64,000 nt of DNA from Rhizorhapis sp. (lineage in GTDB: Bacteria; Pseudomonadota; Alphaproteobacteria; Sphingomonadales; Sphingomonadaceae): contig NZ_DATEMB010000011.1 in assembly GCF_035276005.1 (NCBI RefSeq), positions 29,175 through 93,174 on the forward strand, in the 5' to 3' direction. The first letter of the stretch is position 1, and every line of letters starts with the position of its first letter. A program made the position numbers and the translations under genes. This document shows, piece after piece, positions 8,023-57,214 of the stretch. The notes beneath the pieces are model-generated. The model saw nothing but the letters and a program-made list of their open reading frames with translations, had not been told where the DNA came from and searched no databases.

Positions 8023-8048
8023 CGTCATCCCCGCGAAAGCGGGGATTC
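8023..8048. repeat. single-arm REP-like unit (cgtcatccccgcgaaagcggggattc)
   Basis: Same core as the arms at 2413 and 13958, with the internal hairpin ccccgc-gaaa-gcgggg. It lies just after the aminotransferase stop. Confidence 0.75.
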
Positions 8049-10000: not shown

Positions 10001-13000
10001 CTACGGCAGCAGCAGGGGTGGCCGCCAGGCGCTCATGTCCACCTCATCCCTGACCTTGTAGGGAATGCCGCGTGAATTGAGGAACAGCCGTTCCATCTCG
10101 GCTCTCGTGAAGGGCCGCGAACCCAGCCGCCCGAACACCGCCATCTGCCCGCCGGTCTCGTCCACCGCCCGGTCACGGTCCAGGCCCTTGGAAAGCGACA
10201 AAGCGGCGCTCGGCGTTTTCGCCCAGGCGATCAGTTCCGGCTTTGGTGCGGGGGAAAAGCCATAGAAATTGGGTTGGCTGCCGGGACTGGTGAGTTGCAC
10301 GACCTTGAGGCCATTCCGGCCATCGGCGACATAGGCGAAGAGGGAGGCATTGGTGCTCGCGACGATCACATCCTCGACATCGTTCATCCGGCCGCCAAAG
10401 CTTTCCTTGGCATAGAGGCGCGGGACCTCCGGATTGGTGACGTTGACGATGACCAGTCCATCCTGCTTCGCCGCCACATAAGCATAGGTCCGCGCCACAT
10501 AAAGGCGCTGGGCATTGGCGAGCGGGATAGTGCCGGAAGGAACAGCGACCGGATCGCTGAGCTTGGTCACGTCGAACAGCTTCACCCCTTCCCGGTCCGT
10601 TACCCAGAGATAGCGGAACTGGATGGCAGAGGCGCGGGCGTCTGCGAGCGGACGGACAGCGGCGAGCCGGGGTTTCAGCGGATTGTCGAGATCGATAACG
10701 ACCAGCCCCTTGTCCGCTGTGATATAGGCATAATGCCCGGCAAGCGTGATGTGCCGCGCGCCCTTCAGCACGCCGCCTCCGTTCCAGGTGAGGGCGCGTT
10801 TCAGGAAGTTATTGCGGAATTCCCCATCGGCCATGGTGTTGATGTCGACAAGGACCAGCCCCTCCTCGCTGTCGGTGATGAAAGCGTAATTGTAGATGGG
10901 ATGGAAGGGCTGTTCCTGATTGATCTTCCGCAGCTCTGGTGTGTTGCGCAGCGGGTTAATGGGCTGGTTGGTGGCGAGCGCCATGCAGGTGGCGTTCTTT
11001 GTCTTCACTCTCGTGTCATGGCCGAGCGCGGAGAAGGGCGCTGAGACGATCCGTTCGGAAAAGCCCTTGTTGCCGACCGACGCCACGTCATAGACACGGA
11101 AGCCACCCTTGCCTTCGGCTACGAACATATATTCGCCGCGCAGTTGCAGGCAGCCGACACGGCCCCTGGTGCCCTGCGTGATATTGGCGAATTCCTCGAG
11201 CGGTTGGGTTTCGCCCGACAGCTTCTTGTCGAACCTTTTGCCGCGCACCCAGTTTTTGAGCTCGCGCTTGTTCTGCTCGACATGCAGCTTCCAATAATCG
11301 GGATAGGCATATTTCTGGAGATAGGAGCCGATCACCGCCTGCGGTTCGTCCCATTCGGTGACGCGCACCGCTTCGAAGCCGGCCTCAAGTCCCGTCCAGG
11401 CATGGAGACCGACGAAATTCACATAATTGGTTCCGAGCAGCAGGAGCTGCGCCATGATGGCGTTGTTGTCATTCGCCGCCGACAGATGGCAGTCGCTGCA
11501 CTGTTTGGTCTCGGTCTTGCGCACCGTATGCGGGAAATGCGGCGCAAAGGCCTGGCTGGAGAAGCCAATGCCGCTAATGGGCGGCTGCTGGATATAGATC
11601 CGCTCCCGGTTGATGTTGGTTGAGGACAGCACCAGCGCCGAGGTGGAGCGGACCGGCGCGATCTGATTGCCCTTGGTGGTCATGTGACGGCCGAGCTGGA
11701 ACATGTCCTCACGCGCCACCTGCGGGTTATAAGTGGCGAAATTGCGCGTTTCCTCGCCATCATAATGGTGCGTCTTCGACTTCCAATTGGCTTCGATGGG
11801 AAGATGGCAGCCGCCGCAGCTCGTAGTCCATGAGAGATGACAGGTGAAGCAGGCCATTTCCTCGTCATTATGGGCGCGGTCGGCTTTTGCGACGCCCGGA
11901 CCGAAGGCATAGGTCCCGTCCTCCGCGCCTGACCTGCTCATCAGCTTCGCCCGGGCGGCCTTCGCATTGAAATGGGGATTGCCGCGCGTAACGCTGTCCT
12001 TGACGAGGCTCACTTCCCATTCGAGGTGCGGGTCGACAATGGACCGCTGGATGAGCTTGCGGTTGCCCGCGCTGTCATAGATCCACTCGAAGCGCCGCTT
12101 GCCATCGGCATTGCGGAGCAGGGCTAGATTATTGCCCTGCGGCCGCGCCGCAGGACCGGACGTCAGCAGCGTCGGATAAGCGTCGGCTGTGCCATGGCAG
12201 TCCTTGCAGCCTATCTCCACCGCATTGGCGACCTCGCCATAGATGAGGCCATTGCCATGGCTGTCCTGTGCGAAATGGCAGTCGGCGCATTGCAGGCCCT
12301 TTTCGGCGTGGATGTCCATCATGTGGACCGTCTTTCCCGGATTGACACCGGGGGGGACGAACTTGCCTTCGCCTGCCTTGCGCCATTTTTCGGGATCGTC
12401 ATTGGCGACAATCTTGCCGTCGGCATCGAGCAGATTGCCTTCGCGGTCGCGCTTGAAAATGCCCCGGAAGTTCCAGCCGTGCCCGTGATAGTCGGCGAAC
12501 TGCGTATCCTTGAGCTTGGGATTGAGGTCATAGACATTGCGCAGGAAATCAAGGTCAGCCCATTTTCCGCGCGGCGCCGCCCCCTCCGGGTTGCGTTCCA
12601 GAACCTTGTGCACTTCCTCGGCGGTCGGATATTTCTGGCGTTCCGGCCACATGAAAGGCGCGTCGGACTCATAGTCCCACATGGTGTAGCCGAGATAGCT
12701 GTTCAGGAAGATATTGGGCTGGTGCATGTGACAGTTCATGCACTGCGCGGTCGGAATGGCGCGCGTGAAGGCGTGGCGCAGCGGGTGCCCCTTTTCCTTC
12801 ATGCCCGGCTTCTTGAGAGCCCCATGGCCGCCGCCATGACCGTCATCGTGTCCGCCCTCCATCTTGTCCTTGATCGTCGGATCGGCAGTGAGGGACTGAC
12901 CATCCCGCCCATATGGGGCGTAAGTGAGGCTATGCCTCGGCTCCCGGTCATTGGCATAGATGACGTGGCAAGAGGCGCAGCCGGAATGGCGGTAGTCGCC

Positions 13001-13963
13001 GGGCTGGTCATTGGTGCCCATGAACCAGGTGAATGGGTCGTTGAGACGGGTCTTATGGATATTGAGCACCGGAATCGCGACGCGCAGGCCCGTGCCTGGA
13101 CCGCGATTGGACTGCTTGAGGTCCGGCCGCCCCGGCTCTTCCAGCCGCTGGATTGAGCCAGTGGGATTGGGGAGGCCGATTTCCGGGAACTGGGTGTTGA
13201 TGTTGCGCCCGCCGCGTTCGAACACGCGGAAGATGTCGCCGGGCGGGATCACTTGCCAGGTGGGGAGGGGATAAAGCTCGGCGAGTGCTCCGCGCTTCTT
13301 CTGTTCTTCCGTCACCGTGCCCGGAGGCGTGCCGGGAGAGACGATCTTCGCTGGCTCACCGTCCTTGGTATAGGCTTCGCCGAAGATGTAGTTCTTGAAG
13401 GGAACTATGCCGTTATTATAAGCCGCACCGCCCCAGAGCATCGCGCCTGACGCCATCAGCGAACGCTCTGCGGCCTCGATCACCTCGATATGGCAGGCGC
13501 CGCAGGCTTCGCGGGCGACGCGATAGTCGCTGGGATTGACGAAACGGACGAATTGCGGTGCTTCCTTGTTGAGCAGGGCATAGCTGCGCTTGGGATTGGC
13601 CGAGGAGGGGAAGTGCCAGCTTTCCGGGTACATCGGCAGCACATGCGCCTTGTTGCGGGCCGCAATATAGGCGGGGTCGTCATGGGGCAGATCGGCATTG
13701 CCCCGGACAGTGGCGTCGCCGCCATGGCAATCGACGCAGCCCAGTTTCACGGCGGGCGTGGCGTGCATGCTCGGCTGGTCGGTTTCGACATGGCAGCTAT
13801 AGCAGCCGGAGGATTTGGCGGCGACCTCCTCGTCCGTCTGGCTCATCGGCGCGGGCGGGGCGACGGCGTAGCTGCGCTGGACCGGCTTTTCCTCGTCGCT
13901 GGCCAGGGTGGCGGTGAGAGGGATGAGGAGGAAGAGGGCGAGGAAAATCCACCCCTTCGTCAT
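10001..13963 (-). CDS. decahaem c-type cytochrome fused to a C-terminal LVIVD-repeat beta-propeller (secreted)
   Basis: I counted ten CXXCH motifs: CYSCH, CVDCH, CGACH, CASCH, CMNCH, CADCH, CKDCH, CFTCH, CGGCH, CSDCH. The C-terminal third has about six LVIVD-like strands (GFRVYDV, GLVLVDIN, GLVVIDLDNP, GVKLFDV, GLVIVNVTNP, GLKVVQLTSP). The preferred start MTKGWIFLALFLLIPLTATLA (ATG 13963) gives a signal peptide. The track start at 14077 would read through a REP copy. Confidence 0.85.
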   Translation of the reverse strand: MTKGWIFLALFLLIPLTATLASDEEKPVQRSYAVAPPAPMSQTDEEVAAKSSGCYSCHVETDQPSMHATPAVKLGCVDCHGGDATVRGNADLPHDDPAYIAARNKAHVLPMYPESWHFPSSANPKRSYALLNKEAPQFVRFVNPSDYRVAREACGACHIEVIEAAERSLMASGAMLWGGAAYNNGIVPFKNYIFGEAYTKDGEPAKIVSPGTPPGTVTEEQKKRGALAELYPLPTWQVIPPGDIFRVFERGGRNINTQFPEIGLPNPTGSIQRLEEPGRPDLKQSNRGPGTGLRVAIPVLNIHKTRLNDPFTWFMGTNDQPGDYRHSGCASCHVIYANDREPRHSLTYAPYGRDGQSLTADPTIKDKMEGGHDDGHGGGHGALKKPGMKEKGHPLRHAFTRAIPTAQCMNCHMHQPNIFLNSYLGYTMWDYESDAPFMWPERQKYPTAEEVHKVLERNPEGAAPRGKWADLDFLRNVYDLNPKLKDTQFADYHGHGWNFRGIFKRDREGNLLDADGKIVANDDPEKWRKAGEGKFVPPGVNPGKTVHMMDIHAEKGLQCADCHFAQDSHGNGLIYGEVANAVEIGCKDCHGTADAYPTLLTSGPAARPQGNNLALLRNADGKRRFEWIYDSAGNRKLIQRSIVDPHLEWEVSLVKDSVTRGNPHFNAKAARAKLMSRSGAEDGTYAFGPGVAKADRAHNDEEMACFTCHLSWTTSCGGCHLPIEANWKSKTHHYDGEETRNFATYNPQVAREDMFQLGRHMTTKGNQIAPVRSTSALVLSSTNINRERIYIQQPPISGIGFSSQAFAPHFPHTVRKTETKQCSDCHLSAANDNNAIMAQLLLLGTNYVNFVGLHAWTGLEAGFEAVRVTEWDEPQAVIGSYLQKYAYPDYWKLHVEQNKRELKNWVRGKRFDKKLSGETQPLEEFANITQGTRGRVGCLQLRGEYMFVAEGKGGFRVYDVASVGNKGFSERIVSAPFSALGHDTRVKTKNATCMALATNQPINPLRNTPELRKINQEQPFHPIYNYAFITDSEEGLVLVDINTMADGEFRNNFLKRALTWNGGGVLKGARHITLAGHYAYITADKGLVVIDLDNPLKPRLAAVRPLADARASAIQFRYLWVTDREGVKLFDVTKLSDPVAVPSGTIPLANAQRLYVARTYAYVAAKQDGLVIVNVTNPEVPRLYAKESFGGRMNDVEDVIVASTNASLFAYVADGRNGLKVVQLTSPGSQPNFYGFSPAPKPELIAWAKTPSAALSLSKGLDRDRAVDETGGQMAVFGRLGSRPFTRAEMERLFLNSRGIPYKVRDEVDMSAWRPPLLLP

Positions 13964-14049
13964 TCCCGCGAAAGCAGGAATCCATCTATCCTCTTGTCTC
14001 AACGCTGGATATTGCGGCGCGTTGGATCCCCGCCTTCGCGGGGATGACG
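13958..14049. repeat. REP-like 92-bp palindromic element (cgtcattcccgcgaaagcaggaatcc ... ggatccccgccttcgcggggatgacg)
   Basis: Inverted arms were read directly. The element lies between the OMP stop (14077) and the decahaem gene. Its left arm contains the cat (ATG) at 13961-13963. Confidence 0.85.
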
Positions 14050-14076
14050 AGAAAGAGAAAAGGCGCGCCCAGCCCA

Positions 14077-16029
14077 TCAGAAGCTCACGATGGCATTGGC
14101 GAGAATGGAATAATAGGCATCCTTTCCCGCGCTGTTGTCGAAAAGGTCTTTGAAGCCGTCGCCCGCGACTAGCGTCGCTGCAGACAGGCGGAAGACCAGA
14201 TTCTGCGTCGCTTTAGGACGCCAGATCGCGGCGGCGCTGAGGTCCCAGCCGATGTCGCCCGGAATGCTGCCCTCATTGCGCAGCGCTTGGAGCACTGCCG
14301 TGTTCTCGAACCAGAGATGATTGGCGTTTCCTGACAGCCGCAAAGTGGGCGTCAGGTCGAAGTCCGCGCCGGCACCAAGCAGCATGGTGCCGGGATTGTT
14401 GAAATTGCTCTGCCCCTGTTCCTTGGAGGAACGCAGGCTGTTCAGGATTCCGTTGCGGCCGTTGACGCTGACGGCTCGCCCACCCCCCGCAAAGGGGATG
14501 GTTTGGCGGATCCAGTAGCTGGTATCCGCGCCGGCGAAGATCGGGTTTTCGAAAATGGCATCATAGCCGTTTTCGTGATTGTCATATGGATCGCCATCGC
14601 CGCTGGCATAGAGACCGGAGGCACGGAAGCGCATCCAGTCATGATCATAACTGAGTTCCGCAGCGGCGAAAAAGGCGCGGATCTTTGCTTGCTCGCTGGT
14701 GAAGAAGCTGTTCCGGTCCTCGCCCAAAGCGCCATAAAGGGACGCGGTGAGGTTCAGGCGGCCGATGCGCCCATCAGCGTTATAGCCGAGATAAAGGACG
14801 TCATAGTCCCGCCCGCGCAAGTCGCCCAAGAGCGCCGGGCGCACCGGGAACCCATTATCATCGACTTCGATGTCATTCCCCTCCCGATTGCGGTTGTAGA
14901 CCGCCGTTAGCTGGCTGGTAAGGCCGGGAAAGGGAAGGTCCTGCCGGTAAAGATTGGCGAGGAAGATGAAATCATCGCGAGGGCTTTGGACAACGCTGTT
15001 GAGGCCGCTATTGGTGTCCTTCTCCAACCGCCAAAAGGCCGCAAGGTTGAACTGAAAGCGGTTATTGTCACGGTTGCCGAAGAAGCGAATCCCGAGTTGC
15101 TGATCATTGAACAAGAAGCCGCGGAAATCGCTCTGGAAAGGCTGGATACCGGCGCGGATGGATTCAAAATCATAACGGTCGGAGCTGTTGCGCAGGTGAT
15201 AATCCACAAAGGCTTCCTGCACGCCCAGAAAATGGTCGGTTCGGTGGCTCGGCCGCGACGGCTTGACGGACAGTACGCGCCGTTCGGGCACATTCACATG
15301 ATTGATGTTGTAGGCCAGCGTCAGGCGATATTCGATTTCCGGCGGCTTGAAGGCGGTTGAGCCCTTGATGAGAGCCACGCCGCCGATGAAGGTTTGCGAC
15401 AGGACATAGCTCGCATCCTTGCCGAATACGTCAAGACTGCCGGGCCGCTCAGTCGTTTGCACGCCGACTGGAATGGGGAAGGTACGCGGCTCTATCACCG
15501 TGTCGCTGACTGCGTTCACGACGAAGAACCAGTCGTCGCCCTTGATGGGGAGCCAGGGGACCTTGGCGCGGTCGATGGGGCGGTCGCCTTTCAGGGTGTT
15601 CTGGTGATAGGGATCGAACCAGCGTTCCTTCACCACGCCAAGGGATTCGATGAGCCGCCAGCGGTCGGGGATGGGGAACTGGTCGGTCGGAAAGGCCTCG
15701 GGCGGCGGCGGGCGGACTGCGTCTTCATTGTCCTGAGTGACCCGCTCCGGCAGGGTGCGCTGATGGCCGGGGCGTTTGCGGCCTTCTATCAGGGCTTCGT
15801 CGGCAGTCGATGGAGCTTGGGTTTGTTCGTCAGGGGCGAAGGATGCTTTGAAGCCTTCCCGGGATGGGGAGGGGGACCATGCGAAGCATGGTGGAGTGGG
15901 AAATCGTCCTGGCGCAGCGCCTATGAAGGGGATATCCTCCACCACGCCGCCATGCGACGCGGTTCCCCTCCCCGTGCCGGGGAGGATTTCGTGAGCCGCC
16001 AGTGCCAGAAGCGAGACGCCCAACATCAC
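14077..16029 (-). CDS. outer-membrane beta-barrel protein (family not identified)
   Basis: 650 aa with a short signal peptide (MMLGVSLLALA). It has alternating aromatic/Gly-rich strand-like segments (RFQFNLAAFWRLEKD, LTASLYGALGED, RASGLYASGDGD) and the terminal residues AIVSF, ending in Phe as in many OM barrels. The GTG 16029 / ATG 16026 start overlaps the upstream stop. Confidence 0.65.
   Translation of the reverse strand: MMLGVSLLALAAHEILPGTGRGTASHGGVVEDIPFIGAAPGRFPTPPCFAWSPSPSREGFKASFAPDEQTQAPSTADEALIEGRKRPGHQRTLPERVTQDNEDAVRPPPPEAFPTDQFPIPDRWRLIESLGVVKERWFDPYHQNTLKGDRPIDRAKVPWLPIKGDDWFFVVNAVSDTVIEPRTFPIPVGVQTTERPGSLDVFGKDASYVLSQTFIGGVALIKGSTAFKPPEIEYRLTLAYNINHVNVPERRVLSVKPSRPSHRTDHFLGVQEAFVDYHLRNSSDRYDFESIRAGIQPFQSDFRGFLFNDQQLGIRFFGNRDNNRFQFNLAAFWRLEKDTNSGLNSVVQSPRDDFIFLANLYRQDLPFPGLTSQLTAVYNRNREGNDIEVDDNGFPVRPALLGDLRGRDYDVLYLGYNADGRIGRLNLTASLYGALGEDRNSFFTSEQAKIRAFFAAAELSYDHDWMRFRASGLYASGDGDPYDNHENGYDAIFENPIFAGADTSYWIRQTIPFAGGGRAVSVNGRNGILNSLRSSKEQGQSNFNNPGTMLLGAGADFDLTPTLRLSGNANHLWFENTAVLQALRNEGSIPGDIGWDLSAAAIWRPKATQNLVFRLSAATLVAGDGFKDLFDNSAGKDAYYSILANAIVSF
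15855..15985. repeat. imperfect palindromic repeat element (about 45-nt arms) inside the 5' end of the OMP gene
   Basis: Left arm is cttcccgggatggggagggggaccatgcgaagcatggtggag. Right arm is ctccaccacgccgccatgcgacgcggttcccctccccgtgccggggagg. Its translation (PGTGRGTASHGGVVE...SPSPSREG) is the type of peptide produced when a common alphaproteobacterial intergenic repeat is translated. Confidence 0.7.
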
Positions 16030-17993
16030 AGACCGTCACACACATTCTGCTGCGTGCTGTCGAGGAAGGGCGCAAAGGGGCAGCTCACATAGCGCAGCCG
16101 TACCCCTGCCCCCACATCCACCACGATCTGATCCGCCCTGATCTCTTTGGGCGCGTTGCCGATGCCTCCTAACCGCGCTCCGGCATTGTGGGCGCCAAGG
16201 AAGCTGATCATGTCGTCCTGATCAATGCCGTCGCCCGAAACGCCAATCGCACCGACCAGCACATTGCCCCGATAGATAGGCACTGAGCCGGGAAATATCT
16301 GAATGCCGTTGGCAAGCCGGTTAGTCCCAGGTGTTGCGGTGCAGGCTTGCGGCGTGTCTGTGGCACTCGCACCAACCACGAAATTCAGATGCTCGACCAG
16401 ATTGCCGGCGATGAGTGCCGACTGGAGGCCGGTGGAGAAGGGGTTGAACTGTGCGATGGGGCGCGACAGCGGCCCGTTGGGCTGACCCACTTCACCATCA
16501 GGGAAATATGGGCGGGCCAGATTGCCGATGGAGCGATCAGCAAAGGCGGTATTGCCATTGAGCGCCGTCTGGTCATCAAGAAACGTGCGCATCGCCTGAA
16601 TAAAATTCCCTACGTCGCTGCTCGGATTGGCCTGGAGGTCGCTCGCGGCGTTGGGACCGGAGAAGAAAGCCGCCGTGCGCGCCTTTTGCAGCGAAACGTC
16701 TGTGCCGAAGATTGGTGCGTCGGGCGAGCGGACGATACCCAACACCGCGCCGTTGGTGTCCACTACCGAGATGCTCACTTGCGCGCGGCTGTCGAGCGGC
16801 TGACGGATCTGGGCGCGGGCGCGGCTCATGGTGGAGAAGGCTTCCTCCAGCAGCGCGCGGACTTCGGCGGCGGAGAGGGGCTGGGCAACGGCATCGGTCC
16901 CGGCGCGGATGGGATAGCGGTTGGCGCCCGAGCCGTCAGTCAGGACAAAGGCGTCGCGGTTGCTGAACTCGGCGGAGGTCGACGCGCGGATGCCGGACGC
17001 CTCGCTGCCATAAGGGGTGCCTGCGATCACTGCTGGGGTAGGGGTGCCATAATAGCCGGTCACCGCCACCAGCGATCCTGAGGTTGCGGCGTAGCTGGCA
17101 TTGCCGCTGGTCAGGAGCGCCGAATAGCTGGCATCCGCGTAACGGAGCGCCGTTCCATCGACGGTAATGCGGTTGGCGCGGATGCTTTCGGGCGCTGCAA
17201 AGCCAAGCGTTCCGGCAAGCGCTATAAATTCTTCCGGATCGCTGTCGGTATCCGTGATATCGCTGTCGACACCATAATCACCATCGGCCATCACGCCGAT
17301 GCCGCCTACCAGCACGCCATTTTTATAGAGGGGGAACCCACCCGGATCGCCAGCGAGCCCCAGCGGAGAGCGCTTGGGACCAATCAATGCGCCTGTGCCC
17401 GCCGATACATGGCGCGCGGCAAGGTCGGAGCAGGGAAGCTGACTGAACTGCACTCCGAAAAGGGGGCCGCTTTCCAATCCCGCCGTTCCCGGTGCGGGCG
17501 GGAAATGCTCCTGCACGATCATGCTGGCCGTGCGAGTGGAAAAGGCATTGCCGCCGCTCGACAGATATGCCCCCGTGATCGCCTTGGCGATTGCGCCTGC
17601 TTCGGCGGGAAAGCTGGCATTCTGCGCGTCCATATTGGCGCCGTTGGGCGCGGCGCTGGTGGTGGCATTCGCCCGCGCTCCGGGCATGCGGAAAACGGCG
17701 AGCACATTGCCGACCCGGTCGGTCACTGCGATGACGGCTGGCAGATTCCGCGCACTCGCTTCGGCGGCGGCATTAGCGATAATCTGCTCCACATTGGCGA
17801 CTGATAGCGCCTCCTGCGCAGGCGCGGTGTAAAGCTGGGAAGGCGTAGGTGCGGGTGTCGGCGCGGACGTTCCGCCGCTATCCGAGCCGCCTCCGCCGCA
17901 GGAGGAGAGGAGGAAGGCGGCTCCCGTGAGGAAAGTGGTGAGCCACCTTTTCCCGCCATTCGCGCAAAAGCGATTTAAGGCCAGGCACCCCAT
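16026..17993 (-). CDS. lipoprotein with two GlcG/HbpS-like (DUF336, haem-binding/degrading-type) domains
   Basis: The lipobox is FLLSSCGGGGSDSGG. Domain 1 contains LPAVIAVTDRVGNVLAVFRM and GGFPLYKNGVLVGGIGV. Domain 2 contains VSISVVDTNGAVLGIVRSPDAP, SLQKARTAAFFS and GSVPIYRGNVLVGAIGVSGDGIDQDD. Confidence 0.75.
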   Translation of the reverse strand: MGCLALNRFCANGGKRWLTTFLTGAAFLLSSCGGGGSDSGGTSAPTPAPTPSQLYTAPAQEALSVANVEQIIANAAAEASARNLPAVIAVTDRVGNVLAVFRMPGARANATTSAAPNGANMDAQNASFPAEAGAIAKAITGAYLSSGGNAFSTRTASMIVQEHFPPAPGTAGLESGPLFGVQFSQLPCSDLAARHVSAGTGALIGPKRSPLGLAGDPGGFPLYKNGVLVGGIGVMADGDYGVDSDITDTDSDPEEFIALAGTLGFAAPESIRANRITVDGTALRYADASYSALLTSGNASYAATSGSLVAVTGYYGTPTPAVIAGTPYGSEASGIRASTSAEFSNRDAFVLTDGSGANRYPIRAGTDAVAQPLSAAEVRALLEEAFSTMSRARAQIRQPLDSRAQVSISVVDTNGAVLGIVRSPDAPIFGTDVSLQKARTAAFFSGPNAASDLQANPSSDVGNFIQAMRTFLDDQTALNGNTAFADRSIGNLARPYFPDGEVGQPNGPLSRPIAQFNPFSTGLQSALIAGNLVEHLNFVVGASATDTPQACTATPGTNRLANGIQIFPGSVPIYRGNVLVGAIGVSGDGIDQDDMISFLGAHNAGARLGGIGNAPKEIRADQIVVDVGAGVRLRYVSCPFAPFLDSTQQNVCDGL

Positions 17994-19399
17994 CAGCGCA
18001 GCGCCCTTATGCTTGCCGCCGCGCTGCCCAGCGCTGCCCTGAACTCGCCGGGACGATAGCCATTGGGGTCCTTCACCGCCGCATAGGCGCGGTTGATATT
18101 GGCCCGGATGCTCGCCGCTGCGCCCACCGTCACTTCGCCGGAACTGACGAGCGCATTGAGCAGCGTGTCCACCGCCATCACTGCCTGCACCGAGCCCTCA
18201 TAGTCGGTAAAACGCGGCGCAACGGCGCTTCCGGCAAGCGTGTCGATAATGGCGAATGTCCGATCCCGGCCGAAGGCGGCAGACCCAAAGGCATCGGTCA
18301 GTGCGGCCGCCGATTGCCGCAGCTTGCTGGCGGCGCCGACAGCCGCCGCGCGGTCCTTCGCCAGGGCTGCATGGAAAGCCTGGCTGTCGGCATCGAAACG
18401 GGCGGCCAGTGCCGGGGCGGCTATCTTTGCCGCGGCCGAAAGCATGATCATGTTCTCGTCATTATAGGGCGGCATTCCGCCCGGAATGGACCGCGCCGGA
18501 TTGCTCTCGAACGTCCGCACCGCCTCATCGCTGTCATAGATGCGCCGGTGGCAACTGTGGCAATCGAAGAAGTAGAATTCAGGAAAGACCCCGTCATTGC
18601 CCGTGTCATGGTCGGTATAGAGCGCTAGTGAGCGCTGGAGCGCCATGCTCTGCCCGACTGCCCAGAGCTTCACATTGTTCGTCCGCCCCTTTCTCCGGGC
18701 ATAATCGCCATCCTCATTATGATGCTGCTGCAGCGTGGAAAAGAGATCGAGTTCAAAGCTGATCCGCGGATGCCCCGCCGCCATGATGCGGTGCGTGACG
18801 AACTGCCCGCCATTGGCGCTGCCAAAATGGCAGTCGAGACAGACCGAAGCCCGCGCGCGGGGATCATCCAGCGGGATCATGCCTTTTGCGATATTGGCTG
18901 CATGGGTTGTGCCCACCGCATAATGGCTGGAAATCCATTCGGAAGCCCCGCCATGGCAGCTTTCGCAGCCGACGCCGTCGGAGAGCTGGAACCGGGCGCC
19001 TCGCTTTCCGGCGGGCGCGGGATCGGCATGGCAGCCAAGGCACAGGGGGGACGTGCTTGCGTTTCCGATGCCGAGATTGCGGGCGATCTGGCGGCTGCGC
19101 ATGTTGGAAAGCACCGCAAAGGCCCGGCTATGCGCGCCGCCCGGGGTGGACGGCTCCTGCCAGCGCATCAGTTCATCCTGGCGCACAATCCTGCCGTCGG
19201 CTTCCATGCGGCCATGGCAGGTCGTCCCCGCGCAGGAGGCGACGCCCAGATGAATATTCCTGTCGCCTGAAGTCGCCGCATCAACCGGCGCGGTGGTGGG
19301 AGAAGCCCCGGAGAACAGGATGAAACCCGCCAGGACGAGGAGAATGACAGCCACCGCCCATAAGGTGCGATGCTTGGCTGTGTCTCTTCCCCATGGCAT
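17993..19399 (-). CDS. multihaem c-type cytochrome (4 CXXCH plus 1 CX4CH), membrane-anchored or secreted
   Basis: Haem motifs are CAGTTCH, CLGCH, CESCH, CLDCH and CHSCH. The preferred start is ATG 19399 (MPWGRDTAKHRTLWAVAVILLVLAGFILF, an N-terminal hydrophobic helix). The track start at 19579 would overlap the upstream TpsA gene by 65 nt and encodes an Arg-rich leader. Confidence 0.8.
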   Translation of the reverse strand: MPWGRDTAKHRTLWAVAVILLVLAGFILFSGASPTTAPVDAATSGDRNIHLGVASCAGTTCHGRMEADGRIVRQDELMRWQEPSTPGGAHSRAFAVLSNMRSRQIARNLGIGNASTSPLCLGCHADPAPAGKRGARFQLSDGVGCESCHGGASEWISSHYAVGTTHAANIAKGMIPLDDPRARASVCLDCHFGSANGGQFVTHRIMAAGHPRISFELDLFSTLQQHHNEDGDYARRKGRTNNVKLWAVGQSMALQRSLALYTDHDTGNDGVFPEFYFFDCHSCHRRIYDSDEAVRTFESNPARSIPGGMPPYNDENMIMLSAAAKIAAPALAARFDADSQAFHAALAKDRAAAVGAASKLRQSAAALTDAFGSAAFGRDRTFAIIDTLAGSAVAPRFTDYEGSVQAVMAVDTLLNALVSSGEVTVGAAASIRANINRAYAAVKDPNGYRPGEFRAALGSAAASIRALR

Positions 19400-19514
19400 T
19401 GTTCGTTGATCCCCCCTGACCGCTGCGTTGTGCTTATCGGCCCCTTGTGAGTGCCTATTGCCGGGCCAAGCCATTGCTTTCAAGCCTTTTGGCCTTTCCC
19501 TAAGGTCAAACCTG

Positions 19515-22500
19515 TCAGGGTTCCGCGCAGCCCGCCGCCTCGCCGCCGGTTTCGCAGGCCGGCATCCACAGATCGTCATTGCCGGCGCCCGTTACGGGCT
19601 CATCGATCAGCGGTGGATAACCGAAGGGTTCGAAGTCCTTCAATTCCACCACCATGGTCGGGAAAAGGTCCGACCCGGTGCCGCTTTCGCCCGCCTCCAG
19701 GGGTTCCAGGATCTCGTCATGAGGCGGTGGGCTAAGGCCGTCGTCGACAAAGGTGACGGGCCCGCAAAGCGATGGATTGGCGATAAAACAGCCGTTAATC
19801 GTTGAGCGAGGATCGTAACTCCCGTCCGTCGTGGCCAGCGGGATCACATCCGCGCCTGTTATGAAGCTGCCCCCTCCCACCAGACGGCCATTGATGGCGA
19901 TACGTGCCGTGTCGCTGGCCGTGGTGATGTCCAAGGTGTTGGCGGTAAAGCCACGTCTGTCGGATACCGCATCCGATGCGCCGAGATTCTGCACATAAAG
20001 ACCGTTTACCACGTCAAAGCTGATCGTGCCGGCCCTCAACGCCCCTTCATCCAGGATTATCCCGTCATTCAGGGAAAGCCGCTGATTAATGGCTCCGATA
20101 CCGGCGGCTCCTGCTACATCGGCTATGGCGGCGGCTGTTGCGACGATCACATCATCCGAGGCCAGCCGCAGCGTTCCGGTAAGCGCGCCATTGGCATTGC
20201 GCATGTCGACACTGCCTTGACCAGCTATGACTTCAAGTGCGTCGCCCGCACTGATGTCGAACAGGTTCCCGGCATTGAAATCGTTAAGCGTGACAGCGCC
20301 AATGACCCGCAACTTGCCCGGAGTGGAGATTGACAGGATGCCGCTGGGGCCGAGATTGCCGCCGCTGCCCGCACCTAACGTGAAGCTGTCGACGATCACG
20401 TCCGGGGCTCTGGAAGACCCCACGGAGGCGGTGCTTTGAGAGGCAAGTTGCGGACCGGTTATGCTGATCAGGTTCGAGAATAGTTGCAGGATTTCGGCTG
20501 CTGACAAGCTGTAACCGCTGCTATTGCCGGTCCCGCCGATATAGGTCCGGCGGCTGTCGTCATTGTTCGTCAGTTCCAGCGTCACTGTGCCTGACCGGGA
20601 ACCGATCTGCCCTCCCGATCCGATAATGAGATCGTTTGAGGCAATGGCGATGTTGGTGCCGCTAAGCAGTCCGTCGACCGTAACGGCGCCCATGGCATTG
20701 ATGTCAATGACCGGAGCCGTAACAGTCGTGACCTTCACGTCGCCAAGGCTGGTGTAATAAAAACCGGATGAAGCGTTGGCGGCGGGTCCAAAGCCTGTGC
20801 CGGTCAAACTGCCGGAAATGGCCAATCCGCCCCCGGAACCGGCCGTGTCGCTGACTTCCATGCGGCCGGAACGAATGGTGGTGCCTGTGCCGCTGACGTT
20901 GAAGCTCAGATTTCCCACGCTGCGCGCACCTGTGGGAGCGGCCGTGCCGCCGTTGCTGAACCGCGTAGTGCCGCCAGTCCCGTTGCCAACCGTCCCGGCG
21001 AGGCCGCTGCCTGCCGCGCCTGCCGCGCCGCCAATGCCCTGCGCTTCCAGGGACAAGGTGGGGAAGTCATAGCTCGCACCCTGCGCGTCGAACGCCGCTG
21101 AACCGCCCGTGCCGTCGCCGCCGGACCCCGCATTGCCAAAGCCGAAGCTGTCGCCGCCGGCGCCGCCTTCGCCACTGGCGAGAATTTCCAGGGAAGTTGC
21201 AGTGACGCTGGCGCCGGCATTCAGGGCAACAGCCGCTGTGCCGCCAAATCCATTGCCTCCCGATGTCGCATCGCTGTCTGACACCTGATCCGTGTCCCCG
21301 CCAAGGCCATAGGCGTGGACGAAAATGTCTCCCGCATTCAGCGTGCCGCTGGCTACCATCAGTTGCGACGTTCCGCCTGTGCCATTTCCGCCAGCGGCCA
21401 TGAGGTTGCCGGGGCTGCTCGGCGATCTTGCGAAGCCGCCGGTGCCCAGTGTCGAAAGGGCGAGCATGCCCGTGACATCCGCAAATCCGCCATTGACGTT
21501 GAAGGTGGCCGTCCCGCCAAACCCGTCGCCTGCGGTAAAGGCGGTGGCGCCGGTGCTTTCCCCGCCCTCTCCGCCCAGACCGACCGCGCCAAGCATGATC
21601 GATTGTGCACTCAGCAGACCACCCAGCACATCGGCACGGACAGAGCCGCCCCTGCCGGTGCCGCCATTGCCACTGCCGAAATAATCGCCGGGAATGGGCA
21701 AGCCATAGCCATCGGCGTGGACGTCGAGATTGCCGAAGGTCATCGCGGCGCTGTTGGCGGTGCCCGGCAATAGCTGAAGCAGGACCGTGCCGCCGGTCCC
21801 ATCACCCGCCATGCCGCCGGTCATCTCATACCCGCCAAAGCCATCGGCCGATAGGAACAAGTCGCCGTCCGATGCGAATATTCCGTCCTGGGCCGTCATC
21901 GTGATCGTGCCGCCGATGCCTCTTCCGCCGACAAAGCCCTGGCCGCCCCTTGCATTGGCGGAGATATCGCAAGTTCCGTTCGCGCAGCCGGTGAGAGCGA
22001 ACTGGCCCAGTCCGCTTACCGCGATATTGACCGTGCCCCCCGTGGCGTTTCCGGAAGTGCCGCTGGTATCGGCATCGCCGCCGCTGGCCTCAGCGTTGAT
22101 GAACATTGTACCTGAGCTGAGGGTGCCGCCATTGACGCTGATCTCAGCATTTCCGCCTGTGGCGTTGCCGCCGTTGAGAGAGGTGATGGAGGTCGAGAAT
22201 TGCTGCCCTGCCGACACATCCATTTGGATGTCGCTGGTGGTGATGCTGCCGCCGGTCATGGCGATGCGAACCGTGCCGCCGCTCGCGGTTCCTGAGCTGA
22301 GACCGCCAAGGCCCGCCCTCGCGGTCGAGAACAGCTCTATGTTTCCCGCCGAGATGCTGCCGCCATTGGTGCGGATTTCAGCGGTGCCGCCGGTTGCGCT
22401 GCCGCCGGTTCCTCCGGCGGTGAAATTGTCGAGGCCCACAGCGCTGGCGCCGACCGTCAAGGCGCCGCCGACGGTGACCTGGCCCGAACCATCGGCATAG

Positions 22501-23771
22501 AGGGCCGCGATTCCGCCGATGGCGCCAAGCCCTGCATCGAGCGACAGGTTGGCATCGGCATCAATGGTTTCGCCATTGTCGGCGCCGACGGTGATCGACG
22601 TTGCCGCCTTGAAGTTCGCGTTCTGATTGAAGGTGACGGTTCCCGAAGGCACCGGATTGATCGTGATCGACCCTGTTGCACGACCATCTACGGCAGAAAC
22701 GAAGCCGGTGTCGCTCACATTACCGATGGAAATATTGGCTGCTGCGCTGGTGCTGCTATTGGGCGTGCCCAGCGACTGCCCAGAGAGGATGTCGTGCCCG
22801 GCGGACAATATGACCGCACTGTCCTGCGTCGCGGCGACCGCTGCGGGAGTATAGCCGAAATCCCCCGAAAGAAGCATGGTAAGTGCGCTGTTCTTCGGCA
22901 CAGCCGCAAGGAAGGCGCGCTGCGGCCCGGCGTCGGGCGTCAGGTTGGTCGTGCCAGTATGGACCACACCATTGGCGTCGTCGGTGCCGGTGGTGATGGC
23001 GATGTCGAAAAGGCCGCTATTGATCGTGATCGTCGCTGCCTCCGCACCCACATAGGCGACAGAGCCGTTGACGTTGACCGTACCGAATTGCTGTATCGAG
23101 GGGGCGACGAGGGCGACATAGCTTCCCGGCGCACTGACATTGATCTGCGCGCCAGGCTGGATGGTGACGTGCGAAGAGCTGTTGGGCGTCCCGGTGAAAT
23201 TGATGCTCCCGCTGGAGCCAAAACCAGCTGTGTCGTCGATGTCGCTGCTGGTCAGGACAAGTGAGCCGACGTCGAAAACGGCCGTCGGTCCTGCGATGAT
23301 GCCGCCGGGCGAATAGAACCACACATTGCCGACAGGGAAATTATTGGCGCCAAGCTGCGTCGTCACAGTTCCGTTGAAGGCGACCGGGCGGCTTGTCACG
23401 GGATTGCCGCTGCCGTCGACCGGCAGGATACGGTTCAATACGGTATAGCCCGAAAGCCCGGCAGAAGAATTGTCCACATAAAGGACCGAATTGGTTGTCG
23501 GCAGGAAATCGATGGTGCCGGTGCCGCCGGTATCGGTTGGTGTCCAGTCGATGACCACCTCGCTCGTATCCACCGTAATGGTATCGCTGGTCGCGCCCTG
23601 GACGATGGAGGCCGAGCCGGAGCCGGAGACGACAGCGCCGGTGCCCTGGAAACCGCTTGCTCCGGCCTGCGGGACCTGCGCCGCCGCGGCGAGCACGATG
23701 GCAATAAGGGCGCATCCCTGAAGCAGCGGTGTTTTGAGGCGAGGGGCGTTGTGAATGCTGGACTTCATCAT
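19515..23771 (-). CDS. TpsA-type exoprotein: filamentous haemagglutinin N-terminal (TPS) domain plus Gly-rich beta-helical repeats
   Basis: It has a signal peptide (LLQGCALIAIVLAAAAQVPQAGA). The TPS-like block is VIDWTPTD...VLNRILP...VWFYSPGGIIAGPTAVFDVGSLVLTS. About 12 repeats with a GGT(A/V)x(I/F) core follow. ATG 23771 forms a TGATG overlap with the TpsB stop. The track start is GTG 23783. Confidence 0.85.
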   Translation of the reverse strand: MMKSSIHNAPRLKTPLLQGCALIAIVLAAAAQVPQAGASGFQGTGAVVSGSGSASIVQGATSDTITVDTSEVVIDWTPTDTGGTGTIDFLPTTNSVLYVDNSSAGLSGYTVLNRILPVDGSGNPVTSRPVAFNGTVTTQLGANNFPVGNVWFYSPGGIIAGPTAVFDVGSLVLTSSDIDDTAGFGSSGSINFTGTPNSSSHVTIQPGAQINVSAPGSYVALVAPSIQQFGTVNVNGSVAYVGAEAATITINSGLFDIAITTGTDDANGVVHTGTTNLTPDAGPQRAFLAAVPKNSALTMLLSGDFGYTPAAVAATQDSAVILSAGHDILSGQSLGTPNSSTSAAANISIGNVSDTGFVSAVDGRATGSITINPVPSGTVTFNQNANFKAATSITVGADNGETIDADANLSLDAGLGAIGGIAALYADGSGQVTVGGALTVGASAVGLDNFTAGGTGGSATGGTAEIRTNGGSISAGNIELFSTARAGLGGLSSGTASGGTVRIAMTGGSITTSDIQMDVSAGQQFSTSITSLNGGNATGGNAEISVNGGTLSSGTMFINAEASGGDADTSGTSGNATGGTVNIAVSGLGQFALTGCANGTCDISANARGGQGFVGGRGIGGTITMTAQDGIFASDGDLFLSADGFGGYEMTGGMAGDGTGGTVLLQLLPGTANSAAMTFGNLDVHADGYGLPIPGDYFGSGNGGTGRGGSVRADVLGGLLSAQSIMLGAVGLGGEGGESTGATAFTAGDGFGGTATFNVNGGFADVTGMLALSTLGTGGFARSPSSPGNLMAAGGNGTGGTSQLMVASGTLNAGDIFVHAYGLGGDTDQVSDSDATSGGNGFGGTAAVALNAGASVTATSLEILASGEGGAGGDSFGFGNAGSGGDGTGGSAAFDAQGASYDFPTLSLEAQGIGGAAGAAGSGLAGTVGNGTGGTTRFSNGGTAAPTGARSVGNLSFNVSGTGTTIRSGRMEVSDTAGSGGGLAISGSLTGTGFGPAANASSGFYYTSLGDVKVTTVTAPVIDINAMGAVTVDGLLSGTNIAIASNDLIIGSGGQIGSRSGTVTLELTNNDDSRRTYIGGTGNSSGYSLSAAEILQLFSNLISITGPQLASQSTASVGSSRAPDVIVDSFTLGAGSGGNLGPSGILSISTPGKLRVIGAVTLNDFNAGNLFDISAGDALEVIAGQGSVDMRNANGALTGTLRLASDDVIVATAAAIADVAGAAGIGAINQRLSLNDGIILDEGALRAGTISFDVVNGLYVQNLGASDAVSDRRGFTANTLDITTASDTARIAINGRLVGGGSFITGADVIPLATTDGSYDPRSTINGCFIANPSLCGPVTFVDDGLSPPPHDEILEPLEAGESGTGSDLFPTMVVELKDFEPFGYPPLIDEPVTGAGNDDLWMPACETGGEAAGCAEP

Positions 23772-25504: not shown

Positions 25505-25728
25505 CTTCCGTCCCCTTGTTGCCCGCCGCATTTTTGCGGCCGGACCTATGCCCCCGAATCCTCCCGCGAAAGGAGGATGATAATTGATCTTTGCAATCAG
25601 TTTTCGACTTTGGAGTTACCGCTTCCGTACGGTCTTTTCTATTTCCCGCCTGCTATCAGCGATGCCCCTCTGGTGCAAGCAAGGAGGCTGAATTCCATTG
25701 CTTTTTCATGCGCAAAGTCTTGATGCAC

Positions 25729-26499
25729 CTACCCCTCTGGCGCGGGCTGCGGATCGGGCAACGCGACCGTGTCCACCAGAAGGTTGAGCTGCGCATCGCA
25801 TTTGCGGCTGATCAGCATGGAGGCCATGCTCTCCAGGCCCTCGTCAGTGGCGTTCATGATCGAAAAGGCGATCTTCACCGGTCTTTGAAGCCCCGGCCAG
25901 CTTAAAGTGTAGCTGCTTCCCTCCGTCACCGGCAACGCCGCTGGCCAGGTCGCGCGAAACTGTCCCTTTTCAAAGGGAATGGCCGCGCTCTTGCCGCTCT
26001 TCTCGTCGCGGGCGGTGACCGTCAGCGCCTGGGTAAGATCAGGCCGCCAAAGCTGCACATTATTGGTGTCCGCTATGCAGACGTTGGAGCTTTGGCTGAT
26101 GTCGACATACCAAAGATTGGGGCTGCGCGGCATCCGGCCTTCGTCCGCTCCACCACGTACGGCCCCCGTTCGGGCCCGCCGGACTCGCTGCGTTCCAAGA
26201 AGCCCGGAAAGGCTGTTGCGCGTGTCGCTGACACCGGAAGAGGCGGCGCTTGTATTGAAGCGCCCCGGCCCTTTCAATGTACGCGTGCCGCGTCCGTCAA
26301 GGATGGTCAGCACGTCGCCTGCCTGCAAGGTCAGGACGCTGTTGTCCGCTATCTTCCTGCCCGGAGGATAGCTGCCCGCCGAGGGGCCGCCCGACCTTAC
26401 GACGATGGTTTCGGCAAGCGCAGCGGGGACAGTTAGCACGGCCATCGCCATTGCCGCGGATTTGAAGGCGTTGATGCGGAACTTCCTAGTCAAGAACAT
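25729..26499 (-). CDS. periplasmic FecR-like domain protein
   Basis: The start MFLTRKFRINAFKSAAMAMAVLTVPAALA-ET (ATG 26499) gives a signal peptide. The segment IVVRSGGPSAGSYPPGRKIADNSVLTLQAGDVLTILDGRGTRTLKGPGRF resembles the FecR sensor fold. The C-terminal half was not recognised. The gene overlaps the cyclase gene by 14 nt. Confidence 0.6.
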   Translation of the reverse strand: MFLTRKFRINAFKSAAMAMAVLTVPAALAETIVVRSGGPSAGSYPPGRKIADNSVLTLQAGDVLTILDGRGTRTLKGPGRFNTSAASSGVSDTRNSLSGLLGTQRVRRARTGAVRGGADEGRMPRSPNLWYVDISQSSNVCIADTNNVQLWRPDLTQALTVTARDEKSGKSAAIPFEKGQFRATWPAALPVTEGSSYTLSWPGLQRPVKIAFSIMNATDEGLESMASMLISRKCDAQLNLLVDTVALPDPQPAPEG

Positions 26500-43650: not shown

Positions 43651-43764
43651 GTGCATGCAGACGCGGAACTGGTGTACCGGGCATTGCAGCGGCGAGCCTG
43701 AAATCAAATCGCGGGCGGTGCTTATCTAAGCCTTATACCGAGGGGCCCTGACCCGGCCTAAGCG

Positions 43765-43791
43765 TATCTCGACTTCGCTCGACACGAACGG
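43765..43791. repeat. 27-nt repeat unit (reverse complement ccgttcgtgtcgagcgaagtcgagata)
   Basis: Matches 46120-46146 at 24 of 27 positions in inverted orientation. It lies in a repeat-rich spacer downstream of gshA. Confidence 0.75.
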
Positions 43792-43876
43792 AAAATACTG
43801 GGCTGACAGGCTCAGCCCCAACGCAGGGAGGAGTGATCGCCATTTGCCGGCCACTATAGGCGCGGGAGATTGAAAA

Positions 43877-56866: not shown

Positions 56867-57214
56867 CTGATCTCCCCCCGCTGCGACGCGCTCCTCACAT
56901 GCTTACACTCGAATCGCAGAACCGCGATGGTTGCCTTGTGCGAAGCAAAGCACAAGGAGTGAAATCAAGAAATTCACTCCAGTCCAGTTTCGAGACAATC
57001 AGATAATGCTTGGCGGCTCCAGGCGCTTAACTTTTGTCGCTCAGGTTGATCAACATTGGGACAGGGCCGGGAAATATAGCTTTCGTCATATTTACTATGA
57101 TCGGACCACCAACCAAGCTGATCTATAGCGAACTTCATGCGCGGGGGCGTCGATTCGCAAAGGTTTGAATTTAACGGAATTCTTGGGACTAGGTCCCGAG
57201 ATTAGGGGCGGGAC

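Follow-up and report, generated by a model that had tools for sequence, protein, structure and literature searches.

Organization and conservation of the g1–g4 cluster

The locus considered here lies in a 64,000-nucleotide stretch of DNA from the alphaproteobacterium Rhizorhapis sp. (Sphingomonadaceae; contig NZ_DATEMB010000011.1), which is referred to below as the window. Its subject is a cluster of four genes, denoted g1 to g4, that encode a soluble periplasmic pentahaem cytochrome c, a lipoprotein with tandem enlarged HbpS/GlcG (DUF336)-like domains, an outer-membrane beta-barrel, and a secreted decahaem cytochrome c fused to an LVIVD propeller, respectively. A preliminary description of the locus, made from the DNA letters, had reported this composition and read it as a possible trans-envelope electron-transfer system. 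The sequence-level observations on the four genes were confirmed, with the starts of g1 and g4 corrected and an insert in g3 added.

The list of open reading frames (ORFs) of the window shows four head-to-tail frames on the minus strand, 17993–19579, 16026–17993, 14077–16029, and 10001–14077, and the junctions g1/g2, g2/g3, and g3/g4 read TGATG, GTGATG, and TGATG, respectively. In an independent gene call of an identical public contig the products have 468, 655, 649, and 1320 aa. In agreement with this call, g1 starts at the ATG at 19399 and occupies 17993–19399 (468 aa); g2 is found at 16026–17993 (655 aa) and g3 at 14077–16029 (649–650 aa). The g4 gene starts at the ATG at 13963, as indicated both by the N-termini of its orthologues and by the 1320-aa call, and occupies 10001–13963. 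The long, 1358-aa version of g4 starting at 14077 is an artefact, codons 1–38 of which translate an element resembling repetitive extragenic palindromes (REP-like element). Since this element extends the g4 ORF upstream, it produces the apparent TGATG overlap at 14077; with the start at 13963, g3 and g4 do not overlap, being separated by a 114-nt spacer. Thus the stop/start overlaps of 1–4 nt described earlier, for the third junction on condition of the long g4 start, are retained at g1/g2 and g2/g3, but not at g3/g4.

Relatives of the cluster were sought in a scan of one genome per species, in which at least 597 genomes encode a relative, and 80 loci were kept for comparison. In every one of these loci long enough to show them, g2, g3, and g4 are adjacent and in the same order. 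The g1 gene is always nearby, upstream of the other three in Sphingomonadales and Caulobacterales and downstream of g4, sometimes inverted, in the loci of gamma- and betaproteobacteria and Rhodospirillaceae. The four genes therefore show conserved synteny outside this genome. The short overlaps at g1/g2 and g2/g3 together with the invariant g2-g3-g4 order suggest that the products form one stoichiometric complex. Scans of the window for promoters and terminators returned background levels only. A recent horizontal acquisition was rejected, as the GC content of the cluster (0.60–0.64) equals that of its flanks and the cluster follows the Sphingomonadales phylogeny.

Both g3 and g4 have thousands of database relatives, the nearest named genus being Rhizorhapis (Sphingomonadaceae). 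Each is ~80% identical across the genera of Sphingomonadales, which argues for strong selection; identity falls to 52–60% between g3 and its gamma- and other alphaproteobacterial relatives, and to 40–50% between g4 and full-length relatives that include one metagenome-assembled genome (MAG) of Planctomycetota. The only database names seen for the components are "hypothetical", "LVIVD repeat-containing", and "multiheme c-type cytochrome", apart from an "alginate export" label on some g3 entries.

The multihaem cytochromes g1 and g4

The g1 product contains four CXXCH motifs (CLGCH, CESCH, CLDCH, and CHSCH) and one CX4CH motif (CAGTTCH), exactly as reported before for a cytochrome of ~470 aa, and this set is kept in 55 of 58 orthologues from related loci. 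The C-terminal half of the protein is helical and has no haem motif. The sole Pfam threshold passed by g1 is that of a generic family, PF13435 Cytochrome_C554 (42 bits against a cut-off of 20.8), and its sole sequence match in the PDB is cytochrome c554 (E 0.016). Comparison with the 45 listed orthologues, all of which keep a signal-peptide-like N-terminus and the motif GVASCAGSTCH, suggests that the N-terminus, initially taken for a membrane anchor, is a cleavable signal peptide.

The g4 product is composed of a decahaem cytochrome domain (~aa 22–910), a six-bladed propeller (~aa 930–1260), and a conserved C-terminal tail. The reading of g4 as a protein of ~1320 aa with ten CXXCH motifs and about six LVIVD-type blades thus stands. 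There are exactly ten CXXCH motifs, which account for 20 of the 22 cysteines, and no CXXCK; ten CXXCH motifs are kept in 76 of the 80 orthologues from related loci. The propeller, deduced from sequence repeats, is represented by six blade-like units beginning between aa 953 and 1217 and by a match to PF08309 LVIVD (74.6 bits against a cut-off of 20.2) that is shared by 18 of 18 diverse relatives. Across the same 18 proteins, no His or Cys is invariant in the propeller region. The N-terminus of g4 is a Sec-type signal with conserved A-x-A-type cleavage sites and without a lipobox, and a surface location of g4 is not supported. NrfH/CymA-like membrane-anchored quinol dehydrogenases were considered for g1 and g4 and rejected because the N-termini of their orthologues look like cleaved signal peptides.

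The haem density of both cytochromes is about one haem per 90 aa, and the large non-haem inserts in the cytochrome domain of g4 are near-invariant across phyla. A profile built from the 18 diverse g4 relatives matches the octahaem nitrite reductase of Thioalkalivibrio (TvNiR; E 1.2e-4, 23 bits) and, weakly, NrfA (E ~7e-3, 17 bits). The aligned parts are confined to the first two haems and a single di-haem motif, H..G..CxDCH..GK.Y..CxxCH, which holds haems 6 and 7, and the NrfA family PF02335 is matched by one of the 18 relatives, at E 0.6. An NrfH-like signal is seen at the g4 N-terminus. Judged by sequence, the low haem density, the conserved non-haem inserts, and the weak NrfA/octahaem di-haem motif bring g4 closer in character to a terminal oxidoreductase than to a simple wire.

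In Pfam and NCBIfam, the cytochromes of the cluster match generic cytochrome families only. With the model of the DmsE/MtrA family, TIGR03508, which has a cut-off of 192.2, g1 scores 18 bits and g4 has no reported match, and membership in ExtM was rejected on a sub-threshold NCBIfam match (65 bits against 800). The MtrC/MtrF II/IV domain PF22113 has no match in g4, and five of the 18 distant relatives match it. In the comparisons with Pfam, NCBIfam, and the PDB, no cytochrome of the cluster falls into a characterized enzyme family. Among the relatives, an MtrC/MtrF-like haem domain is found in P0248 (1456 aa; domain at aa 813–952) and in P0255 (1648 aa; aa 274–413), the latter carrying additional cytochrome c7/c3 modules at its N-terminus.

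The lipoprotein g2 and the outer-membrane barrel g3

The g2 protein begins with the lipobox LSSC, which has Gly at position +2 and is followed by a Gly/Ser/Pro linker; a lipobox is present in 55 of 67 orthologous ORFs. The remainder matches PF03928 HbpS-like (84 bits against a cut-off of 25), and its halves are homologous to each other (29% identity over 248 aa, E 8e-11), in line with the earlier assignment of g2 as a lipoprotein of two DUF336 domains, here in an enlarged form. The best sequence match in the PDB is EfgA (6bws, E 4.6e-7). Though g2 is the only lipoprotein of the four, it has no haem motif. Four Cys, two Met, and not a single His are conserved among 68 sequences, and the absence of a conserved His means that haem binding is not indicated by the sequence.

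The g3 protein was modeled with AlphaFold2 from an alignment of 96 sequences spanning 52–92% identity. The model (mean predicted local distance difference test score, pLDDT, 77.1; predicted template modeling score 0.77) contains 18 long strands, with short turns alternating with longer loops, and the C-terminus reads ...IVSF, so the suggestion of an outer-membrane beta-barrel ending in Phe is borne out. The top Foldseek match in the PDB is the alginate exporter AlgE (3rbh; E 1.6e-16, template modeling score 0.67, target-normalized), followed by OprD/Occ channels and chitoporins; MtrB does not appear among the 50 matches listed. At the sequence level g3 matches nothing in Pfam, including MtrB_PioB, or in NCBIfam, even at E ≤ 10, and neither g3 nor g4 has a significant match among PDB chains when searched by sequence. 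Many orthologues of g3 bear the UniRef label "Alginate export domain-containing".

Two segments distinguish the family. The first ~100 residues have low confidence in the model, yet they contain the strongly conserved motif PIPDRWRLIESLGV..WFDPY.QNT.KGDRPI. The most conserved segment of the whole protein is a 72-aa loop between strands 13 and 14, which is near-invariant across phyla. On the strength of the model, g3 would be a substrate channel of the AlgE/OprD type and not a sheath of the Mtr type, and a cytochrome threaded through it is unlikely.

Distribution and the linked inner-membrane trio

Among the 80 loci are those of Sphingomonadales, Caulobacterales, Rhodospirillaceae, Elsteraceae, Halieaceae/Alteromonadaceae, and Limnobacter, together with one MAG labeled Candidatus Sulfotelmatobacter. 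The hosts mostly belong to lineages of aerobic heterotrophs from soil, freshwater, and marine habitats. The cluster had been called unexpected in an aerobic alphaproteobacterium. This is a fair remark for a system that resembles extracellular electron transfer (EET); the cluster itself is typical of aerobic heterotroph lineages and is no oddity of this genome.

Clustering of all ORFs of the loci showed that three further families, F9, F8, and F6, adjoin the four genes in 43–49 of the 80 loci. They do so in at least six arrangements (convergent, co-directional, or split) across Alpha-, Beta-, and Gammaproteobacteria, for instance F9-F8-F6-g2-g3-g4, g1-g4 convergent with F6-F8-F9, F8-F6-g1...g4, and F8-F6-g2-g3-g4-g1-F9. 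Such a variety of arrangements across classes speaks for a linkage that is functional and not just inherited.

F9 is a cytoplasmic protein of ~810 aa, a TrxR/YpdA-type NAD(P)H/FAD flavoprotein lacking the redox CxxC, with Pyr_redox, two cNMP_binding (cyclic nucleotide-binding), and Fer4 dicluster domains, the last containing two [4Fe-4S] motifs. F8 (~275 aa, five transmembrane helices) has four invariant histidines, His82, His96, His251, and His265, in 46 of 46 members, forming two H-x13-H pairs. The prokaryotic cytochrome b561 family is matched weakly and below threshold by 12 of 13 F8 members, and Ferric_reduct by five of 13; from these sequence features, F8 is a candidate di-haem b cytochrome. 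F6 (~590 aa) combines an FHA domain, a transmembrane helix, and ten CXXCH motifs in 49 of 49 members, and is thus an inner-membrane-anchored decahaem protein. The trio raises the total from the 15 c-type haems of g1 and g4 to 25, plus two likely b-type haems. Linkage to these proteins is what a chain from the cytoplasm to the outer membrane would need, and it strengthens the electron-transfer reading of the cluster.

Proposed function and alternatives

As the cleavable signal peptides of g1 and g4 leave the four proteins without an inner-membrane anchor, the electrons must come from an outside source. Our leading, though tentative, reading is that g1–g4 form that half of an NAD(P)H-fed multihaem chain which lies in the periplasm and the outer membrane, the chain ending at a dedicated channel and its substrate being reduced by g4. 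Electrons would pass from NAD(P)H via FAD to the Fe-S clusters of F9, cross the inner membrane through the two b haems of F8, and then travel along 25 c haems, ten in F6, five in g1, and ten in g4, reaching the outer membrane at its inner face. At this site g4 would be held by its propeller and C-terminal tail under a g2-g3 complex and would reduce a substrate arriving or leaving through the g3 channel, which would serve as a dedicated passage for substrate or product and not as a sheath around a cytochrome. The flux is probably gated by a cyclic nucleotide and by Ser/Thr phosphorylation. On this reading, either the trio is encoded beyond the 64-kb window in the Rhizorhapis genome or g1 is fed by another periplasmic donor. 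The channel is preferred to an Mtr-like conduit because of the fold and size of g3, which are those of a substrate channel, the non-cytochrome nature of the lipoprotein, and the haem-sparse g1 and g4 with their large conserved non-haem regions.

Several observations weigh against this proposal. F6, F8, and F9 were not found in the 64-kb window, even at E ≤ 10; a relative with 91% identity likewise shows no trio up to 10 kb from g4, and 18 sampled loci show none within 10 kb. It is thus only by analogy that the trio can be tied to the cluster of this genome. Both the direction in which electrons flow and the position of g4 are inferred. The AlphaFold2 model of the g4 cytochrome domain (aa 22–931, from 62 sequences at ≥78% identity) has a pLDDT of 34.6 and is unusable. 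At least ten non-motif histidines are kept in this domain across diverse relatives, and 14 are kept at ≥95% among the related loci, which is enough for all g4 haems to be bis-His, as would fit a pure wire. Finally, some distant g4 relatives pass the PF22113 threshold (30.8 and 40 bits against 30), a hint at a surface role.

This last observation also favors the most serious alternative, a porin-cytochrome conduit, in which electrons would cross the outer membrane via g3 with part of g4, g1, or g2 inserted, to reach extracellular Fe(III), Mn(IV), humics, or O2 (giving superoxide). The combination of a barrel, a lipoprotein, and two multihaem cytochromes parallels the logic of the Mtr and porin-cytochrome complex (PCC) systems, and a 25-haem chain with an inner-membrane module seems more than a periplasmic reaction needs. 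Small barrels can work with a haem domain, as in Cyc2. Further, it was from proteins of the cell surface that LVIVD repeats were originally reported (PMC2447325), and EET was proposed for the related Ptd cluster by its authors (10.1101/2023.11.21.568154). Nevertheless, the AlgE/OprD-like g3 has 18 strands, with no MtrB entry in the 50 structural matches listed and no match to MtrB_PioB at E ≤ 10; the lipoprotein is no cytochrome and has no conserved His; g4 has no lipobox; g1 and g4 are haem-sparse, unlike the MtrA-type inserts; and the hosts are aerobic heterotrophs. We consider such a conduit doubtful.

Somewhat less credible is the possibility that g4 works on its own in the periplasm as a multihaem enzyme, in the manner of NrfA, the octahaem reductases, or HAO, acting on a small nitrogen, sulfur, or peroxide-type substrate and fed through g1 from the respiratory chain, the trio being optional and unused here. 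The profile matches to the octahaem nitrite reductase and NrfA, the NrfH-like N-terminal signal, the enzyme-like haem density, and the strongly conserved non-haem segments would all suit this explanation, as would the loci that lack a nearby trio, the window among them, and an OprD/AlgE-type channel would fit the import of a substrate. On the other hand, the similarity does not extend beyond a di-haem packing motif, which c554 and c3 models match as well; there is no CXXCK, the NrfA family is all but unmatched among the relatives, and the histidines suffice for an all-bis-His protein. The recurrent, rearranged linkage of the trio across classes would also be hard to explain if the trio were optional. 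Should g4 prove to be an enzyme, it would be a new multihaem oxidoreductase served by an outer-membrane channel of its own.

The chain might also run inward, with g4 oxidizing Fe(II), Mn(II), or a reduced-sulfur donor and passing the electrons to the inner membrane, but we regard this as improbable. Limnobacter, a thiosulfate oxidizer, carries the cluster. A trio of this type occurs in the Fe(II) oxidizer Ferrigenium, where its authors suggest input from outer-membrane oxidases (10.64898/2026.01.22.701106). However, the chain has an NAD(P)H/FAD/Fe-S protein at its inner end, and such donors would have to reduce NAD(P)+ uphill; aerobic organoheterotrophs make up most of the hosts, and neither an oxidase nor a quinone-reducing partner is present in the clusters. 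A non-redox role, in which the cytochromes would be accessory and the AlgE-like barrel and the HbpS-like lipoprotein would transport a polymer, haem, or some other tetrapyrrole through the outer membrane, is very improbable: HbpS-like proteins do bind or degrade haem (Pfam PF03928 description) and AlgE is a polymer exporter, but none of the loci has linked genes for polysaccharide synthesis, TonB, or haem uptake, the 15 c-haem motifs of g1–g4 (25 with F6) are strictly conserved, and g2 has no conserved His.

Returning to the NAD(P)H-fed chain, a bolder version of it, to which we assign a rather low probability, is that g1–g4 and the trio constitute an electron-export machine gated by cyclic nucleotides and phosphorylation, a multi-subunit bacterial counterpart of NADPH oxidases and ferric reductases. 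If so, common aerobic heterotrophs of the Sphingomonadales, Caulobacterales, and Halieaceae could use NAD(P)H from the cytoplasm to drive reactions at the outer membrane or outside it, the candidates being the production of extracellular superoxide or the reduction of Fe(III), Mn oxides, or humic substances. Redox activities of aerobes, the enzymes of which are to our knowledge largely unidentified, would thereby gain a molecular basis. More generally, a chain exporting electrons from NAD(P)H would be a new way for aerobes to perform surface redox chemistry.

Comparison with known systems

Multihaem systems that span the envelope have been described mainly in anaerobes that respire metals and in iron oxidizers. 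Like MtrCAB and the Geobacter PCC, the cluster consists of tightly coupled genes for an outer-membrane barrel, a lipoprotein, and multihaem c cytochromes that include a decahaem protein, and it has a likely role in carrying electrons towards the outer membrane. In contrast to these systems, the barrel modeled here has 18 strands and is AlgE-like, compared with the 26 strands of MtrB; the lipoprotein has no haem motif; g4 lacks both a lipobox and a match to the MtrC domain; g1 and g4 are haem-sparse, and the MtrA/DmsE score is far below the cut-off. The linked input also differs, being NAD(P)H here and quinol, via CymA/ImcH-type proteins, in the Mtr and PCC systems. The earlier remark that the layout is not a textbook Mtr or PCC one is thus upheld by the 18-strand barrel, the non-cytochrome lipoprotein, and the lack of family-level matches. 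As for the trans-envelope electron-transfer interpretation itself, it gains from the conserved unit, the real barrel, and the linkage to the trio, and loses its Mtr-like surface picture; a g3 that fails to model as a barrel, cytochromes of a well-characterized enzyme family, or a lack of synteny, each of which would have counted against it, were not observed.

The closest described relative is the ptdABCDEFG cluster, a putative porin-cytochrome complex of "completely unknown" function from Alphaproteobacteria of oxygen-deficient zones (10.1101/2023.11.21.568154). It comprises a pentahaem cytochrome with a beta-sandwich (PtdA), the porin PtdB, an FAD/NAD(P) oxidoreductase (PtdC), a tetrahaem cytochrome (PtdD), and an inner module of a protein with a cNMP domain and two [4Fe-4S] clusters (PtdE), a membrane protein resembling ferric reductases (PtdF), and a cytochrome with ten haems (PtdG) (10.1101/2023.11.21.568154). 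Both systems combine a porin and periplasmic multihaem cytochromes with an inner-membrane module, PtdE, PtdF, and PtdG (with PtdC) corresponding by description to F9, F8, and F6, and the hosts of Ptd, too, include Planctomycetes as well as marine Proteobacteria of aerobic or microaerobic habit. Going by the descriptions, the g2 and g4 architecture is not shared. Ptd has the pentahaem PtdA with a beta-sandwich where g4 is decahaem and carries an LVIVD propeller; no DUF336 lipoprotein is listed, and the flavoprotein is a separate, flavohaemoprotein-like gene. Further, the inner-membrane module is adjacent in Ptd but absent from the 64-kb window, the equivalent trio adjoining many of the related loci instead. 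A similar inner module was noted in Ferrigenium, in which an FHA-containing "nonahaem" membrane cytochrome lies beside a protein with five transmembrane helices and a [4Fe-4S] protein, described as novel and of unknown function (10.64898/2026.01.22.701106).

The predicted fold of g3 is the 18-stranded barrel of AlgE and the OprD/Occ channels, but sequence identity is 12–13%, with no Pfam match at E ≤ 10, and g3 has in addition the conserved N-terminal ~100 aa and the near-invariant 72-aa loop. Neither the window nor the related loci contain alginate genes, nor is there a catabolic context; the partners of g3 are cytochromes. In the comparison with NrfA, TvNiR, and c554, the first two haems and the di-haem motif of g4 align and g1 passes the Cytochrome_C554 threshold, whereas the scores of g4 are low (23 bits for TvNiR and 17 for NrfA), CXXCK is missing, the NrfA Pfam family is unmatched, and g4 is twice the size and has a propeller.

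Finally, the trio resembles the eukaryotic NADPH oxidases and ferric reductases (NOX/FRE) and the bacterial Fre-MsrQ in having a cytoplasmic NAD(P)H flavoprotein that would feed a membrane protein with two H-x13-H pairs. Two b haems in a membrane protein are the classic arrangement for outward electron movement of the NOX/FRE type. The differences are that the components of the trio are separate polypeptides with added Fe-S and cyclic nucleotide-binding domains and a 25-haem c-type acceptor chain, that all matches to Ferric_reduct and cytochrome b561 are below threshold, and that the trio is absent from the window. The uet cluster of Tenderia and the NHL-propeller clusters of Desulfovibrio ferrophilus are analogues only.

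In a literature search, no paper was found on a module combining an LVIVD-decahaem cytochrome, a DUF336 lipoprotein, and a barrel. We conclude that the cluster is an uncharacterized trans-envelope multihaem electron-transfer cluster, a sibling of the equally uncharacterized Ptd, which stands out for its breadth among aerobic heterotrophs and its strong conservation. Its 15-haem outer module is kept in at least 597 species genomes, mostly of aerobic heterotrophs, and the gene set, the partners, and the regulators are defined well enough for direct genetics in tractable Sphingomonads or Caulobacterales.

Putative regulators and neighboring genes

Genes with regulatory functions recur around the cluster. 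A metallophosphoesterase is found in 40 loci and CHASE2 nucleotide cyclases in 19–21 loci, including those of Caulobacterales and Limnobacter. In two gammaproteobacterial loci (L075:8846-9871 and L076:9648-10745), a PP2C-type Ser/Thr phosphatase gene follows g1, which would fit phospho-control via the FHA domain of F6.

The window itself contains, at 25729–28468 on the minus strand, a CHASE2 adenylate/guanylate cyclase (26486–28468, identified by Pfam) and a 288-aa protein of an unknown family (25729–26595). The cyclase is 54–56% identical over its full length to cyclases located directly upstream of g1 in eight loci, all from Erythrobacteraceae genera or unclassified MAGs of Sphingomonadales, and in these loci a small gene of the same 288-aa type lies between the cyclase and g1. 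The cyclase and the 288-aa gene of the window are thus possibly linked to the cluster, from which the cyclase is parted by an ShlB/two-partner-secretion pair. The module directly upstream of g1 (19515–31560, minus strand) consists of a CHAT-domain protein (28465–31560), the cyclase, the 288-aa protein, an ShlB/FhaC-type transporter (23771–25531), and an exoprotein (19515–23783) of 1422 aa that is rich in Gly, Ala, and Thr and has no Pfam match. No secretion pair was detected between the cyclase/288-aa gene and g1 in the eight related loci, and the CHAT protein is present upstream in three of them.

Some neighbors are confined to particular lineages. In non-Sphingomonad loci, a small secreted protein (~135–215 aa, C-terminus "...LKFG.F", no Pfam family) is encoded between the F6 gene and g2 (L067:5852-6265, L078:5485-5943, L081:5677-6198, and L071:5576-6229); it may be an eighth component of the system and was not seen in the window. 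In Hyphococcus and related Caulobacterales, g4 is followed by a cytochrome c maturation gene of the CcmI/CycH type (L045:13891-18435 and L059:14238-17822), the ORFs beyond which look like further ccm genes; a CcmI-like gene is located near the cluster in 36 loci.

In the 91%-identical relative, an ICMT-like gene and a GCS2 (glutamate-cysteine ligase) gene stand directly after g4/DUF192 (L082:14736-17518). In the window the same two genes are found at 42352–45250, ~30 kb off and on the other side of the cluster, which points to a rearrangement breakpoint next to the cluster end.

Palindromic elements and other features of the window

The REP-like element that fills the g3-g4 spacer (13965–14042, no strand assigned) was recognized from its sequence and motif count and reads tcatccccgcgaaggcgggga ... 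ttcctgctttcgcgggaatga. It lengthens the g4 ORF by 38 codons ("SPRRRGS...IPAFAGMT") and thereby misleads start calls. Orthologues of g4 without the element open directly with the signal peptide, which closes with an A-x-A-type site, and continue with SD/EEKPV; similar false N-termini are annotated on some database orthologues. The core of the element, CCCGCGAAGGCGGGGA, has eight matches in the window, compared with 2.8 expected, and the copies mostly form inverted pairs ~50–60 nt apart (1796/1849, 2420/2476, and 13965/14027). Other REP-like stretches are located at 1796–1864, 2420–2491, and 8030–8045.

Another palindrome, distinct from the REP-like element, is inserted in frame within g3 at 15859–15980 (minus strand), just past the signal sequence (roughly codons 17–57). 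Its arms, at 15859–15878 and 15961–15980, where 0.02 chance matches are expected, consist of the GC-rich palindrome CCGGCACGGGGAGGGGAACC and its complement. The insert adds ~40 residues and leaves the protein intact; it is present in two of nine aligned orthologues and absent in the other seven.

The region 54434–63502 encodes two large RTX/Calx-beta/cadherin-like repeat proteins (54434–56866, minus strand; 57215–60310, plus strand), followed by ORFs of 600 and 460 aa, all of which look unrelated to the cluster.

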